Source: a phage | Reading direction: 5' to 3' (one strand) | Sequence record: PZ386970.1 | DNA: 64,000 nucleotides | In this document: piece after piece, positions 19,320 to 39,892 of the stretch | Numbering within the stretch: position 1 is the stretch's first letter | Layout of the letters: each line of letters begins with the position of its first letter | The notes under the pieces: model-generated | Databases searched by the model: none | What the model saw: only the letters and a program-made list of their open reading frames with translations | What the model was told of the DNA's origin: nothing | Position numbers and translations under genes: made by a program

Positions 19320-20321
19320 TTATTTCAGTAAAGTTACTTCAGAGATTTCCTCCCAACCATCTTTATCAGTTGAAATAAAATCTGCTACATAAAGAGCCGT
19401 ACGTAATGATACATTGCGAAGACGAGATACGTTAGCCTTCATCCAGGACAATGCTTTATACGTTTCTGCATCCGTCAGACCACGTTTCTGCATCATGTCA
19501 GTAGATAATATTACATCTTCAACTCGAACCATAATCTCTTCATTAGAGTGTACTCCAAGGTCGAGATACACTGAACGAGATACTAAAGCTTGAAGGTGCG
19601 GAGCAAGTTTCGAACCACGTTCTAACTCTTTATCGATATCAACGTTTGTAATGAAAACGATAGTACCTTCAAACTCAAATTCTTTATCAATACCCTTATC
19701 ATCGAGATAAGATGACGCAGTACTCCAACAAACTTTGCGTTTATCGCCAGTATCCAATGCTGCTTTAAGAAGGTTCAGGATGTCCATATCCGAGAATACG
19801 TCAACGTCGTCGATTAAGAGAACGCTGTCTGCATCACGGTTGAGCCAAAGTTGTTCGTAAAGGCCAATACCAGAGATTTTGCCATTAATGCTTTTGTATT
19901 TGATGAAACCGTTATCATTAGCATTATTAAGTGCTTTATCCAGAGAATACGTCTTACCAATACCAGCTGCACCTGAAATAATGAGTGAACGAATTTTGCC
20001 ATCGATAATGCCATTCGTCATCATGTTCATTACTTTAAAGCGTTTGTTGATACGAGTTTTCATATCTTCAGTGCTTTCAACAACTGCAACTGGTGATGTC
20101 TCAACTCCTTCCATTACGATGTCTGATTTGAAGACCCATACTCCACGTTCAGAACCATCAATCATAACGAAAATTTTACCATCACCTAAGTGGGAACATT
20201 CAGGATTAAGCTTTGCCGGGAACCATGTCTTTGTGGCAACATAAGAACCAGAGATTTCGTTATTACGATAGATACCTTTTTTGATTTGAACGTTGAACAT
20301 TTTATTCTCCAATTTACTCAT
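19320..20321 (-). CDS. P-loop ATPase (AAA-like)
   Basis: 333 aa; Walker A ISGAAGIGKT and Walker B VLLIDDVD about 50 aa downstream. Confidence 0.6.
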   Translation of the reverse strand: MSKLENKMFNVQIKKGIYRNNEISGSYVATKTWFPAKLNPECSHLGDGKIFVMIDGSERGVWVFKSDIVMEGVETSPVAVVESTEDMKTRINKRFKVMNMMTNGIIDGKIRSLIISGAAGIGKTYSLDKALNNANDNGFIKYKSINGKISGIGLYEQLWLNRDADSVLLIDDVDVFSDMDILNLLKAALDTGDKRKVCWSTASSYLDDKGIDKEFEFEGTIVFITNVDIDKELERGSKLAPHLQALVSRSVYLDLGVHSNEEIMVRVEDVILSTDMMQKRGLTDAETYKALSWMKANVSRLRNVSLRTALYVADFISTDKDGWEEISEVTLLK

Positions 20322-20369: not shown

Positions 20370-20588
20370 TTATTTGCGACGAGATTTTTTGGTAAGAGGT
20401 TGAAAGAACACTGCTTTACCTGCCGGGGTTAAGGTGACTCGTAATGCGTTACCGATTCCTAAGGATGCTTTAACTAGTCCTTTAGCTTTCAGTTCACCGA
20501 ATGCTTGACGTTGGTCTGCATCACGAGTGTTAACCATAAGACCTTTATCACCAGCTTCACGAATCATTTCTAACATTTTGGTTTTCAT
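20370..20588 (-). CDS. hypothetical small protein
   Basis: ORF trimmed to MKTKMLEMIREAG...; basic C-terminus. Confidence 0.4.
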   Translation of the reverse strand: MKTKMLEMIREAGDKGLMVNTRDADQRQAFGELKAKGLVKASLGIGNALRVTLTPAGKAVFFQPLTKKSRRK

Positions 20589-20616
20589 TTTGTTCTCCTC
20601 TTGTTTTGATAGGTCT

Positions 20617-20645
20617 ATAATAACATATCCTAAAAGCATGTACAC
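20617..20645 (-). promoter_or_regulatory. T4-type early promoter
   Basis: Minus strand GTGTAC-17 nt-TGT-TATTAT followed by AGACCTATC. Confidence 0.45.
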
Positions 20646-20664: not shown

Positions 20665-20692
20665 GACCCCCTAAAGGGACCCGAAGGTCCCC
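20665..20692 (-). terminator. UUCG-tetraloop hairpin element (terminator or stability element)
   Basis: Minus strand GGGGACC-UUCG-GGUCCC followed by UUUAGGGGGUC, directly after the stop of the gene at 20697-20963. Confidence 0.4.
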
Positions 20693-20696
20693 ACAT

Positions 20697-20963
20697 TTAC
20701 TTATCGCACTTAGCAACATAATTAGGCATATCACAGAATACGGAGCGAGTAACTACTCGGCCCTTTGACCATGCTTCAGTTGCTTGTCCTGCCGTGCTAT
20801 TAATATAGCTTGATTTAATGTTCTCAATACCCTGAGAATGTGATGCATTTACCGAACCGTTGGAAGGTGCAGAAGACTGGTTACCACCAGCTCCTGTACC
20901 TGTGGTAGCACCAACAGAGAATGCCATCATTACTGCGAATAAACCAATTACTAATTTTTTCAT
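20697..20963 (-). CDS. small secreted protein (signal peptide)
   Basis: 88 aa; N-terminal MKKLVIGLFAVMMAFSVGA signal-like segment, Gly/Ser/Thr-rich linker, C-terminal Cys pair. Confidence 0.5.
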   Translation of the reverse strand: MKKLVIGLFAVMMAFSVGATTGTGAGGNQSSAPSNGSVNASHSQGIENIKSSYINSTAGQATEAWSKGRVVTRSVFCDMPNYVAKCDK

Positions 20964-20994: not shown

Positions 20995-21984
20995 TTATTT
21001 ATAGTAAGAATTATGATTTTCGAGATAGACTTGCTCAAGGAAATCATCCCAGAAACTCATATCTACTTTTTGTTGCATACCGTTCTTAGCGGCCTGTTCT
21101 GATGCTTGTTCTACCTGGTCAACGATATCTTCTAGGAATTCTTGTACAGTTTTAAACGTATGTTTACCAAGCTTAACATCGAGAATAAATGGAGCATCTT
21201 GAAGTGGGTAAACCAGGTCGCCGGTTTTATAAATTTCCAATAGTTGAAGTCCACCACGACATGCATGACTCAATGCTTTCCAGTCAATACCTTCGTTAGC
21301 TTCTGCCTTACGAGCACGTTCACCGTAGTTCTCTTCCAGTTTAACCAGGATGGCATTGAACTCTTTATTGGTTAACGTGTCTTGGAATTTACGGTCTAAC
21401 AGACTATAGAACGTTTGCTTACCTGTTTTCTCGTTTTCGGTTTCAACCCATGAAGCAAATTCACCTACAGGCAGAACATTCTTCATATGTGATAAACGAA
21501 TTACTGCACCATTATCAAAGTATTGTCCCCATTCATTAGAACGTTTAAGGGCTTGACGAAGAACAGCCAGTCGAGAACCCTTGACACCGTATTTAGAAGC
21601 TTGCTTACGGACATACCCTAAATAAGATTTCATGTTAGTGGTATAGAAACGAGACCTGTTATCTTGAATATACTTCCATACATCAGGCAAATCAGATTTA
21701 ACTACTAGACTTTGTGGAGTGTGAAGCATATCTAATGCGACGGTTTCACCATCCGCAGCTAGTTTAAAGAAATATTTGAGACTATATAACTCATGGTCCA
21801 CGTCGTCTTTTGTGTTCTTAGAAGATGTGTTATTCGTGTTCTTGCTCATATGTTCTTTAACGTTACCGGTCAAGATATCACGAGCATGAGGGACATAAAT
21901 TTCTTTAAAATCGACGTCAGATTCAGGAGTAGACGTTCCATAAAGGTGGCTACCAAAGTAGCCTTTCATAATTGTTTTCATCAT
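20995..21984 (-). CDS. nucleotidyltransferase-fold protein (Pol-beta superfamily)
   Basis: 329 aa; N-terminal GSHLYGTSTPESDVDF fits the hG[GS]-x9-13-DhD motif, with a third acidic residue in the downstream strand ETVALDMLH. Confidence 0.55.
   Translation of the reverse strand: MMKTIMKGYFGSHLYGTSTPESDVDFKEIYVPHARDILTGNVKEHMSKNTNNTSSKNTKDDVDHELYSLKYFFKLAADGETVALDMLHTPQSLVVKSDLPDVWKYIQDNRSRFYTTNMKSYLGYVRKQASKYGVKGSRLAVLRQALKRSNEWGQYFDNGAVIRLSHMKNVLPVGEFASWVETENEKTGKQTFYSLLDRKFQDTLTNKEFNAILVKLEENYGERARKAEANEGIDWKALSHACRGGLQLLEIYKTGDLVYPLQDAPFILDVKLGKHTFKTVQEFLEDIVDQVEQASEQAAKNGMQQKVDMSFWDDFLEQVYLENHNSYYK
20997..21004 (-). promoter_or_regulatory. candidate T4 late promoter (TATAAATA)
   Basis: Exact TATAAATA on the minus strand about 34 nt upstream of the secreted-protein gene start; an 8-mer can occur by chance in AT-rich DNA. 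Confidence 0.3.
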
Positions 21985-22463: not shown

Positions 22464-22994
22464 TTATTTCAAAGTCGGGATAATAGAATCGAGATAAGCT
22501 TTAAGAGCAACCGCTTCATCTTTGTCTAATGTAACGATATGCTGACGAAGGTCATCAATTTGGCGAATAACTACGACATCACCGTCTTCATAAGAAGGAT
22601 TAACGCCTAGGACTGTTGTATAGTCAGGGCGGTCCTGATTTGTAATAAAAGCATTACGGCATTTAGCCCATTGAAGTTTGGCCTTTTTGGCTGTTTCAGA
22701 TTCCACGAATTCTTTCACCTTAGTGACGAATGTTTTCCAATTATTAATAGAAAGGCATTCATCTTCTGTTTCGATATTAACCCCACTATAAAGGCCGTGA
22801 TAAAAACGAACTTGAAGGTCTTCATCGATGTTAATTACAGATGCATGGCCGGGCGGATTGAGTTTCAAAATCTTGTCCAGTTCCATAGGAAGAATAGTAA
22901 TAGAATCATCTTCTTGTGTCAGAACATACACATAACCGCGTTTTTCGATACATAAATCGCCAAACAACTCGGTTGTTTCAATTACGGTTTTCAT
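22464..22994 (-). CDS. hypothetical protein
   Basis: About 176 aa ORF; no motif. Confidence 0.4.
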   Translation of the reverse strand: MKTVIETTELFGDLCIEKRGYVYVLTQEDDSITILPMELDKILKLNPPGHASVINIDEDLQVRFYHGLYSGVNIETEDECLSINNWKTFVTKVKEFVESETAKKAKLQWAKCRNAFITNQDRPDYTTVLGVNPSYEDGDVVVIRQIDDLRQHIVTLDKDEAVALKAYLDSIIPTLK

Positions 22995-23310
22995 ATTATT
23001 CACCAATTAAAGTTTCAACAAAATTCACCAAAGCATTCTGGCAAGCGTCAACCTGATTTTCATAAAAGTCTCCGTTATCATTTACCGCATGATAAGCTAC
23101 ATCACTCAAATCTGAATCGGCTTCACGTAAGTCACGGATAAGGTCCATCAATTTATTAGCTTGTTCACGGGTCATTTTACCATACTCGTTTCAATAAGAT
23201 TCACTATGCCGTTTACCATGTTATAAGTAAACATCGGATAATTGTATTGTACTACAACATAAGCGATAAGCAAAAGTTTCATTTTGTTCTCCAATTGTTT
23301 TGATAGGACT

Positions 23311-24392: not shown

Positions 24393-24974
24393 TTATAACA
24401 ACCCTGTCAAATCATTCCAATGCTTCCGGCATAATGACACATATCTATCAGTATCACCAATTTCAATTTGACTGCCATCTGTAATTGGAAGTCCGTCTTC
24501 CGTGACTCTAGCTACCATTGTGGCCTTTTTACCACAATGACAGACACCTTTAAGTTCAACAAGCTTATCGGCAATAGCCATTAATGCTTGAGAACCTTCA
24601 AATAGATTACCTTTAAAATCTGTTCGTAGTCCATATGCCATTACTGGCACATTGTATACGTCAACAATACGACTAAGTTGATACACCTTTTCAGTAGTTA
24701 AGAACTGAGCTTCGTCAACAAATACACAGTGAATATCCTTTTGTGCTGCAGCCCATTTATAGAATTCAAAGATATCCATGTCTTTTGTAATTATATTGGC
24801 ATCCTGACGAATACCAATACGAGAGACTATTTCACCTTTTGAATCACGAGTATCAATAGCCGGTTTAAGAACTAATACACCCATGCCACGTTCTTTATAG
24901 TTATGTGCAGCCGTAAGTAATGAAGCAGACTTACCAGCGTTCATAGCGGCATATGTAAAAATTAAACTAGCCAT
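24393..24974 (-). CDS. tk: thymidine kinase
   Basis: 193 aa; P-loop AAMNAGKSASLL, conserved VDEAQF, and zinc motif CHCG...CRKHW. Confidence 0.9.
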   Translation of the reverse strand: MASLIFTYAAMNAGKSASLLTAAHNYKERGMGVLVLKPAIDTRDSKGEIVSRIGIRQDANIITKDMDIFEFYKWAAAQKDIHCVFVDEAQFLTTEKVYQLSRIVDVYNVPVMAYGLRTDFKGNLFEGSQALMAIADKLVELKGVCHCGKKATMVARVTEDGLPITDGSQIEIGDTDRYVSLCRKHWNDLTGLL

Positions 24975-24983
24975 AAGAGTCCC

Positions 24984-25166
24984 TTATAGTGAATTCACAT
25001 AGTCAATGAGTTCTTGTTCTTTCCTGTCAAATGATTCCAACAATGCTTGATATTCTTCATCTGTTAAAGGAGCATATTCATCGTACGCATTGGTGGCTGC
25101 TTGCTCATCCAATAGGTCATGGATAAGTTCGAACAGTTTAGCTTTCTCTTCTTTAGTCAATTTCAT
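24984..25166 (-). CDS. hypothetical acidic protein
   Basis: 60 aa ORF; no motif. Confidence 0.35.
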   Translation of the reverse strand: MKLTKEEKAKLFELIHDLLDEQAATNAYDEYAPLTDEEYQALLESFDRKEQELIDYVNSL

Positions 25167-25657
25167 TTAGGTTCCCAATCAACAATCACAATTTCTAGTT
25201 TAGTGGAATACGTATCTAAAATCTCTTCGATGACATCCCAGTTTCCACCACCAATACCTGCACCAATTCTTGGCATATAAATTACAGGCTTTGTTATCTT
25301 ATTCTTTCCGAATTTATTTAATTCTATTATACAATTCATTAAAGCAGAGTACTCAAAATTAGGTCCCGGCTCAAACTGTGTATAAAGATTAAAGCAATAA
25401 GCTTTATGGGTCTTAAAATATTTTTCATAAACTGAATAAGTCCCGAGTTTAGACTCGTCTCCGAATTCGGTTTGAAGTTTATCGGCTTCTAAAATTTTTG
25501 GATAAGCCTTTGCTAATTGACCTGCTACACCGGCGCCCATTGTATGAAAACAATTACACCCATGAGCAATATTATTACCTTTAGAAAACAGGGCGACAAT
25601 ATCGCCCTTGATATAGTTTTTAATCACTTGCTGCAAGTCCTCTAGTATAAGAGTCAA
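25163..25657 (-). CDS. macro-domain protein (ADP-ribose binding/hydrolase fold)
   Basis: 164 aa; NIAHGCNCFHTMGAGVAGQLAKA and C-terminal IGAGIGGGNWDV glycine-rich loops typical of macro domains. Confidence 0.6.
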   Translation of the reverse strand: MTLILEDLQQVIKNYIKGDIVALFSKGNNIAHGCNCFHTMGAGVAGQLAKAYPKILEADKLQTEFGDESKLGTYSVYEKYFKTHKAYCFNLYTQFEPGPNFEYSALMNCIIELNKFGKNKITKPVIYMPRIGAGIGGGNWDVIEEILDTYSTKLEIVIVDWEPK

Positions 25658-39737: not shown

Positions 39738-39814
<77 letters not shown>

Positions 39815-39817
39815 GAT

Positions 39818-39892
39818 TGGTGACCCTGGCTGGTTTCGATCCAGCTACCTATCAGTTATGAGCTGACAGCTCTCCCATTGAGCTACAGGGCC
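39818..39892 (-). tRNA. tRNA with CAU anticodon (Met or Ile2-type)
   Basis: Hand-folded cloverleaf on the minus strand: acceptor GGCCCUG/CAGGGUC, D-stem GCUC/GAGC, anticodon loop CUCAUAA, T-arm GCUGG-AUCGAAA-CCAGC, encoded CCA; 3 nt from the tRNA-Arg 5' end. Confidence 0.7.

Follow-up and report, generated by a model that had tools for sequence, protein, structure and literature searches.

The gene at positions 20995–21984 of the phage DNA analyzed here (sequence record PZ386970.1; the whole stretch of 64,000 nucleotides is called the window below) is, by sequence comparison, the ortholog of phage T4 nrdC.11 within the RlaP family of nucleotidyltransferases (NTases; Pfam PF10127). By analogy with bacterial members of that family, its product is probably an accessory RNA 3′-end NTase with catalytic residues D23, D25 and D63, which would rebuild trimmed tRNAs so that PseT and the Rnl1/Rnl2 ligases can repair them. 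The gene is already catalogued and widely annotated (as a COG3541 NTase since 2006, as RlaP in Pfam, and through an identical deposited protein), and it does not represent a new kind of system. The features discussed below are collected in Table 1.

Table 1. Features of the NTase gene and its neighbor in window coordinates, and genes found at the loci of its relatives, placed relative to the NTase gene
Feature	Position	Strand	Basis or loci
CDS, 329 aa, RlaP-family (PF10127) nucleotidyltransferase, T4 nrdC.11 ortholog	20995..21984	minus	Open reading frame and translation, PF10127, phrog_388, identity, synteny
Predicted N-terminal Pol-beta NTase core, about residues 1–110, strands 3–9, 24–31, 45–47, 62–68 and 94–96	21655..21984	minus	AlphaFold2 model
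GSHLYGTSTPESDVDF, residues 11–26, with G11-S12 nucleotide-binding turn and metal carboxylates D23 and D25	21907..21954	minus	Conservation
D63, probable third catalytic carboxylate, in V-D-H opening predicted strand 62–68	21796..21798	minus	Conservation and AlphaFold2 model
ETVALDMLH, residues 80–88, conserved helix with D85	21721..21747	minus	AlphaFold2 helix 81–87, alignments
Predicted C-terminal helical domain, residues 119–328, ending in long terminal helix 309–328	21001..21630	minus	AlphaFold2 model
Predicted three-stranded beta-meander inserted in the helical domain, residues 177–201	21382..21456	minus	AlphaFold2 strands 177–184, 188–195 and 198–201
P-loop protein, nrdC.10 ortholog, GAAGIGKT at residue 117	19320..20321	minus	phrog_1250
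Hen1 and bacterial Pnkp (kinase-phosphatase-ligase, PF16542)	directly upstream	same as NTase gene	L055, L070, L072, L077
Pnkp (further loci)	upstream		L062, L038, L085
Kinase-phosphoesterase-Rnl1 fusion	4 nt upstream		L051
RtcB	near		L017, L026, L028, L038, L052
Ro60/TROVE	near		L028, L029, L059
T4-type Pnk and Rnl1-type ligase, clustered with the NTase gene			L011, L079
Standalone T4 Pnk kinase-domain homologs (PDB 1ly1/1ltq, E about 3e-9)	near		phage loci L003, L007, L008, L074
HD-domain gene (PF13328)	overlapping the NTase start		several alphaproteobacterial loci

The gene, its family and its distribution

The 329 aa open reading frame was placed at exactly these coordinates by an earlier sequence-only reading of the window, to which only the strand, minus, has to be added as a correction. 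Its stop codon occupies positions 20995–20997. At the other end its first ATG (21982–21984) shares nucleotides with the stop codon of the gene upstream (ATGATGA); one codon further on lies another ATG, and the 328 aa form that starts there is the one used in many deposited annotations. A scan for promoters and terminators gave numbers not above those expected from shuffled sequence (22 against 18.1 ± 4.3 and 3 against 2.7, respectively).

Residues 7–137 of the protein score 49 bits (E 8.6e-13) against PF10127 (RlaP, “RNA repair pathway DNA polymerase beta family”), for which the gathering cutoff is 23. This match covers the N-terminal NTase half only (profile positions 23–144 of 249), and all of the homologs listed carry the same family. 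In PHROGs the full length of the protein (residues 1–329) matches phrog_388, “nucleotidyltransferase” (E 3.6e-126); neither an NCBIfam search of the protein nor a PADLOC search gave a match. The protein is 100% identical to the deposited Mosigvirus protein bas47_0200, and the closest complete genome is that of Escherichia phage vB_EcoM_G2469 (MK327934; Mosigvirus, Tevenvirinae), to which this DNA region is 97.6% identical. T4 NrdC.11 (NP_049709.1, annotated “nucleotidyltransferase”) is about 78–80% identical in amino acid sequence and is encoded by a syntenic gene; synteny with the nrdC.8, nrdC.10 and mobD.1 orthologs is kept in the T-even early region. Membership of the RlaP family, together with an intact active site (see below), is well supported and in our judgment nearly certain.

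Relatives of the protein are numerous. A tblastn search matched it in 1,521 phage records, 1,446 of which cover at least 80% of the protein; these records are mostly Straboviridae, with hosts that include Escherichia, Klebsiella, Shigella, Aeromonas, Acinetobacter and Vibrio. When 1.84 billion cluster representatives were searched exhaustively with HMMER, the relatives numbered 3,268 at a cutoff of E ≤ 1e-3, of which 747 remained at E ≤ 1e-30.

The sequence-only reading had also put the NTase next to a P-loop ATPase. Such a neighbor does exist, the nrdC.10 ortholog of Table 1, but two small open reading frames lie between the two genes. The nrdC.10-like protein has only sub-threshold AAA hits in Pfam and no relative in the PDB, and its gene is almost as widespread in the Straboviridae as the NTase gene (1,312 records). 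Neither it nor the other window neighbors are present at the distant NTase loci examined, outside the T-even-like genomes; as the P-loop gene is missing from every one of these loci, a two-gene NTase-ATPase system was rejected, and we take the adjacency to reflect shared synteny of an early-gene block and not to be evidence of such a system.

Characterized members of the RlaP family

The name RlaP and the prediction of a role in RNA repair are credited to Burroughs and Aravind in two sources (bioRxiv 10.64898/2025.12.29.696909; PMC7824862), and among jumbo phages the distribution of RlaP mirrors that of RNA ligases (PMC7824862). Biochemical information comes from a preprint of 30 December 2025 by Carruthers, Fatma and Huang on two Pseudomonas RlaPs, PfRlaP and PaRlaP, which are encoded between rtcB and rtcA (bioRxiv 10.64898/2025.12.29.696909). 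Both enzymes add one or two NMPs to RNA 3′-OH ends and then stop; they use any NTP and also dATP, prefer Mn2+, and accept RNA but not DNA or protein as the acceptor, E. coli proteins remaining unlabelled (bioRxiv 10.64898/2025.12.29.696909). Full-length tRNA and rRNA-sized species are among the many RNAs that they label, and they take single-stranded RNA ending in a 3′-OH; when offered a mimic of a cleaved tRNA, they strongly favor the 3′ end of the 5′ half, at the anticodon-loop break, over the acceptor 3′ end (bioRxiv 10.64898/2025.12.29.696909). When a tRNA-Asp mimic short of one loop nucleotide was treated with RlaP and then ligated, aminoacylation was regained in part, and, the addition being untemplated, the correct nucleotide is put back in only part of the tRNA pool (bioRxiv 10.64898/2025.12.29.696909). 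The authors suggest that RlaPs act against “smart” ribotoxins such as RloC, and they find T4 NrdC.11 in a separate cluster (cluster 5) of their PF10127 SSN and term it “of unknown function” (bioRxiv 10.64898/2025.12.29.696909). RloC removes the wobble nucleotide, and this damage has been proposed to “defy reversal” by T4 Pnk and Rnl1 (PMC2610378).

Active site

Residue conservation was judged from three alignments, A1 with 60 sequences (including T4, a KVP40-like Vibrio phage and an Erythrobacter phage), A2 with 103 sequences, and A3 with 141 cluster representatives. A first homolog search gave only near-identical Mosigvirus copies, and the search was reseeded with the Erythrobacter phage homolog to obtain diversity for alignment and modeling.

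The segment GSHLYGTSTPESDVDF fits the pattern hG[GS]-x10-DhD (G11-S12...D23-V24-D25), and G11, S12, D23 and D25 are invariant in A1 (60/60) and A2 (103/103) and conserved in at least 140 of the 141 representatives in A3. The Pol-beta superfamily motif claimed from the letters of the sequence is therefore real, and the E-values of the PF10127 and phrog_388 matches given above put it far beyond chance. In the Pol-beta fold the third carboxylate usually opens a beta-strand, which is where D63 sits: it lies 38 residues past D25 and, in the predicted structure, begins a strand with an h-D-h pattern. Position 63 is Asp in every sequence of A1 (60/60) and A2 (103/103) and acidic throughout A3 (D in 138 and E in 3 of the 141). 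The sequence-only reading had placed the third carboxylate in ETVALDMLH, at D85, 60 residues past D25. This is probably wrong, since D85 lies in a predicted helix and is replaced by N or A in three representatives, all of which keep the other three carboxylates (the remaining 138 of 141 have D or E there); position 80 at the start of the same segment is E, Q, D or N in A3, often Q or N. Strand versus helix topology, together with this conservation, makes D63 the better candidate, and the catalytic triad is probably D23/D25/D63. D85 is nonetheless conserved, and it probably lines the active-site cleft. The preprint on the Pseudomonas enzymes speaks of “three strictly conserved aspartic acids” and does not name the catalytic residues (bioRxiv 10.64898/2025.12.29.696909), so the choice between D63 and D85 rests on conservation and on the AlphaFold2 secondary structure. 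The combination of an hG[GS]...DxD motif and a third conserved carboxylate that marks RlaP proteins is thus present here as G11, S12, D23, D25 and D63.

Predicted structure

An AlphaFold2 model made from alignment A2 is confident (mean pLDDT 89, pTM 0.79). Besides the strands in Table 1, its NTase core has helices at residues 69–77 and 81–87. The body of the helical C-terminal domain spans residues 119–300, ahead of the terminal helix. The C-terminal domain has invariant or near-invariant residues of its own (Y124, Y132, R138, G221, R223, D234, W235, K236, H240 and R243), and the beta-meander within it lies outside the portion of the protein matched by the Pfam RlaP profile. The order of predicted secondary structure elements agrees with that of RlaP, an N-terminal NTase domain, a helical C-terminal domain and a terminal helix; in the PfRlaP crystal structure, which has these same parts, the terminal helix packs back on the NTase domain (bioRxiv 10.64898/2025.12.29.696909). 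The C-terminal domain of the phage protein is about 80 residues longer than that of typical RlaPs and carries the beta-meander insert, so the substrate preference of the phage clade could differ from theirs.

Foldseek comparison of the model with the PDB, in a set that seems not to include the PfRlaP structure, gave weak matches (E about 3e-3, TM ≤ 0.35), and the top ones are all Pol-beta-type NTases. Among solved structures, Hailong HalB, 3c18, and ANT(4′)/kanamycin and other aminoglycoside NTases come nearest in fold; no cGAS or CD-NTase structure is among the listed top PDB fold matches. Sequence searches of the PDB found no relative, either with the single protein (E ≤ 1) or with the family profile (E ≤ 1 and E ≤ 10). 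In a library of viral models the NTase fold recurs in many phage and giant virus proteins annotated as nucleotidyltransferases, including those of the jumbo phages G, PaBG and RP12. The predicted structure agrees with the NTase fold that the sequence-only reading had proposed, in that it contains an NTase core and all of its top solved matches are NTases.

Gene neighborhoods of the relatives

Because the Pseudomonas enzymes belong to another cluster, the window protein's own clade was surveyed for a link to RNA repair. A scan of species-representative genomes gave 80 loci with products 29–42% identical to the window protein over their full length, several of them on megabase-sized chromosomal contigs; 78 loci were fetched, and their flanking open reading frames were clustered and annotated by Pfam, phmmer and PDB searches. 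About 20 of the 78 have a recognized RNA healing or sealing gene (Hen1-Pnkp, RtcB, Rnl1, T4-type Pnk or Ro60) within about 4 kb, in the arrangements given in Table 1, and about 58 have no recognizable RNA-repair neighbor. As RNA healing and sealing genes are rare in genomes, we informally judge them to be strongly enriched beside the NTase genes of this clade.

The NTase gene does not adjoin pseT, rnlA or rnlB in the window or in T4. In the closest complete genome (MK327934) the polynucleotide kinase gene (pseT) and the orthologs of Rnl1 (rnlA) and Rnl2 (rnlB) are found at T4-syntenic positions, away from the NTase gene. The link to RNA ligase and repair genes by which RlaPs are recognized is seen at the loci of the clade and in the gene content of this closest genome, and not as adjacency in the window.

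Proposed role and alternatives

Homologs in another subfamily and the gene context make it fairly likely that RNA 3′-OH ends receive a few nucleotides from the phage enzyme. D23, D25 and D63 would act with a divalent metal (Mn2+ in the characterized bacterial enzymes) to place one or two untemplated NMPs on the 3′-OH of a broken RNA. If a host anticodon nuclease cut a tRNA and also trimmed off a nucleotide, as in wobble excision of the RloC type, the phage NTase could put a nucleotide back before the PseT kinase-phosphatase and the Rnl1/Rnl2 ligases act, and ligation would then return the anticodon loop to its full length in at least some of the tRNA molecules. By the same analogy the target in vivo would be nuclease-damaged tRNA. 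Of the hypotheses on the biological job of the enzyme, the one with the best support is that it rebuilds tRNA breaks that have lost nucleotides, for repair by PseT/Rnl1; we put it forward tentatively, as one that could well be right or wrong. T4 that lacks the block from nrdC.11 to mobD.3 is still viable on a laboratory host (PMC9825161); this fits an accessory or counter-defense gene, and it gives no positive phenotype.

An RNA 3′-end NTase could also have other targets, such as the trimmed 3′-CCA ends of host or phage tRNAs, or mRNA fragments and small RNAs whose stability would be altered by added tails. The wide range of RNAs labelled by the bacterial enzymes, up to rRNA-sized species and full-length tRNA, would allow this, as would the presence of the phage's own tRNA-Arg and tRNA-Met (39738–39892) and the location of the NTase gene in an early-region block away from repair genes. 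It is nevertheless rather unlikely, given the strong preference of the bacterial enzymes for the anticodon-loop end over the acceptor 3′ end of the cleaved-tRNA mimic and the fact that the relatives' neighbors are healing-and-sealing enzymes (Pnkp, Hen1, RtcB and Rnl1) and not CCA-adding or poly(A) machinery.

Transfer to an acceptor other than RNA, either a host protein (AMPylation, as by DrrA or GlnE) or a small molecule (as by aminoglycoside and lincosamide NTases), is improbable. The solved folds that would suggest it are 8–13% identical to the window protein at TM ≤ 0.35, no sequence-family match to such enzymes was found, PfRlaP and PaRlaP left E. coli proteins unlabelled, and the gene has no resistance or effector context. 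The more specific suggestion of an antibiotic NTase (ANT/Lnu) was rejected for lack of a shared sequence family, the 8–13% identity, and the missing resistance context.

The longer C-terminal domain, the beta-meander insert and the position of HalB as the closest solved fold together allow the thought that the T-even/Straboviridae RlaP clade (SSN cluster 5) was diverted from tRNA mending to anti-defense, for example by adding a tail or a cap to a host immune nucleic acid or by making short oligonucleotides that silence a HalA-like DNA-gated effector. We consider this quite improbable; if it were so, the protein would represent a new class of phage counter-defense enzyme and not a repair accessory. 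Production of a nucleotide signal, whether by a CD-NTase-like cyclase or by a HalB-like template-independent oligo(dA) synthase that placates a DNA-gated effector, is very improbable, as not even a profile search reveals sequence similarity to HalB or CD-NTases, there is no PADLOC match, cGAS/CD-NTase structures are absent from the listed top fold matches, and RlaPs stop after one or two additions and leave DNA unextended. A CD-NTase/cGAS-like (CBASS) enzyme was rejected on the PADLOC and fold results and because no such Pfam domain was found.

A C-terminal domain like that of kanamycin NTase, with a HEPN-type fold, is a general feature of such NTases. An MNT antitoxin-like protein that neutralizes a HEPN RNase by nucleotidylylation is scarcely credible, and the HEPN-MNT pair was rejected, as the 329 aa protein with its fused helical domain is far larger than the small MNT chains among the fold matches (7ae9_G, 147 aa), the Pfam scan of flanking genes gave no HEPN domain match, a HEPN partner is largely missing across the relatives' loci, and the conserved H240-x2-R243 differs from the HEPN R-x4-6-H motif. 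The sequence-only reading is thus upheld for an NTase in general, whereas its cGAS-like, toxin-antitoxin and antibiotic NTase suggestions and the link to the P-loop neighbor found no support when family membership and locus were considered.

If, as the tRNA-rebuilding hypothesis has it, the NTase restores nucleotides removed by RloC-type anticodon nucleases, it would complete the classic T4 Pnk/Rnl1 tRNA-repair pathway, and a question of 2008, whether removal of the wobble nucleotide really puts phage tRNA repair out of action, would have its answer. The idea that RlaP counters RloC-type damage has itself already been proposed in the literature.

Comparison with known systems

Hailong HalB (PDB 9dbh/9dbj) is 15% identical to the window protein and has no detectable sequence relationship to it; HalB is a tetrameric, Tyr-primed protein of 217 aa that makes long poly-dA and works with a HalA partner, and none of these features was observed for the window protein. 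ANT(4′) and its relatives (1kny, 6nmk, LinB 3jyy and ANT(3″)(9) 7uy4) have, like the window protein, an NTase core followed by a helical bundle, but they differ from it in sequence family and in their resistance context, with identity and TM values as given above.

The Pseudomonas fluorescens and P. aeruginosa RlaPs (SSN cluster 1a) share much more with the window protein: the Pfam family, the domain order of N-terminal NTase, helical C-terminal domain and terminal helix, three conserved aspartates, and a genomic link of family members to RNA ligases and repair genes that is also seen in the window protein's clade. They differ in belonging to a different SSN cluster from T4 NrdC.11 (cluster 5), and the window protein aligns to the Pfam family in its NTase half only and has the longer C-terminal domain with its beta-meander insert. 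The Pseudomonas genes lie in an rtcB-rtcA operon and the window gene does not, and RNA 3′-end addition has been shown for PfRlaP and PaRlaP only.

The closest known counterpart is T4 NrdC.11 (COG3541/PF10127; phrog_388), whose likeness to the window protein extends over the full length, although it is 336 aa long compared to 329 aa. In T4 a mobD homing endonuclease gene lies upstream, where the window has a gene for a 157 aa membrane protein instead, and the two small open reading frames that separate the NTase gene from the nrdC.10 ortholog in the window are missing from T4. In both phages the gene occupies the same early-region place, between the nrdC.10 ortholog and a mobD.1/y05I-like gene, and the two proteins have the same catalytic residues.

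Gene neighborhood of the nucleotidyltransferase

The minus-strand 329-aa nucleotidyltransferase (NTase) of the window, the ortholog of T4 nrdC.11 and a member of the RlaP family, lies immediately downstream of a gene for a predicted membrane protein; at that gene's position T4 instead carries the homing endonuclease gene mobD. The stop codon of the membrane-protein gene overlaps the NTase start (ATGATGA), and this overlap in the sequence suggests that the two are translationally coupled. T4 also lacks the two small ORFs present on the other side of the NTase; the phrog_2243 ORF has a signal peptide-like N-terminus (MKKLVIGLFAVMMAFSVGA). A terminator-like hairpin separates these two ORFs, but terminator-like sites were not above the shuffled-sequence level.

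The nrdC.10 ortholog is present in 1,312 phage records and is nearly core in Straboviridae. It carries a Walker A motif (GAAGIGKT, residue 117) and a Walker B-like LLIDD (residue 168); its domain matches, all sub-threshold, are AAA/STAND/clamp-loader-like, and no sequence relative was found in the PDB. In many GenBank phage genomes the nrdC.10 and nrdC.11 orthologs are labeled "thioredoxin." A Pfam search found no thioredoxin domain in either protein, and the label looks like a mistake that spread through the nrdC-derived gene names.

Features of the window and of distant RlaP loci (L numbers, loci encoding full-length relatives of the NTase)
Feature	Location	Strand	Remarks
nrdC.10 ortholog	19320-20321	-	333-aa P-loop protein
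Small ORF	20370-20645	-	phrog_6001; between nrdC.10 and nrdC.11 orthologs
Terminator-like hairpin	20665-20681	-	
Small ORF	20697-20963	-	phrog_2243; between nrdC.10 and nrdC.11 orthologs
NTase (nrdC.11 ortholog)	20995-21984	-	
Conserved helix, residues 80-88	21721-21747	-	alignments A1 (60 sequences) and A3 (141 cluster representatives)
Predicted membrane protein, 157 aa	21981-22454	-	phrog_944, "moron/host takeover" category
mobD.1/y05I-like putative transcription factor	22464-23006	-	PF24449 and PF24448
Thymidine kinase	24393-24974	-	
tk.4-type macro-domain protein	25163-25657	-	
tRNA-Arg(tct) and tRNA-Met(cat)	39738-39892	-	adjacent genes
HD-domain gene	L005 7330-8004		PF13328; overlaps/adjoins RlaP gene start
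HD-domain gene	L045 6908-7525		same
HD-domain gene	L080 4824-5414		same
HD-domain gene	L052 5487-6008		same
HD-domain gene	L017 5561-5989		same

Distant relatives and their neighboring genes

The conserved helix occurs in two versions across alignments A1 and A3, GETxAxDMLH in the T-even phages and most of the nearest representatives and GDTVATEILF in the subclade resembling the Erythrobacter-phage homologue; D and E are exchanged at positions 80 and 85, and H and F at position 88.

Compact clusters of an NTase gene with genes for a T4-type Pnk and an Rnl1-type ligase are found at L011, whose contig is labeled as a Bathyarchaeota MAG, and L079; L039, L056, and L057 likewise have archaeal MAG labels. 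The contigs with the clusters are short, were binned with archaeal or uncultured bacterial MAGs, and may be mis-binned viral contigs or carry a mobile three-gene RNA-repair cassette.

At several alphaproteobacterial loci, some of them prophage-like, and at L017, the RlaP gene start is overlapped or adjoined by an HD-domain (HD_4) gene, whose product could remove 2′,3′-cyclic phosphates or 3′-phosphates ahead of nucleotide addition. This pairing resembles the HD-NTase combination of the class II CCA-adding enzymes.
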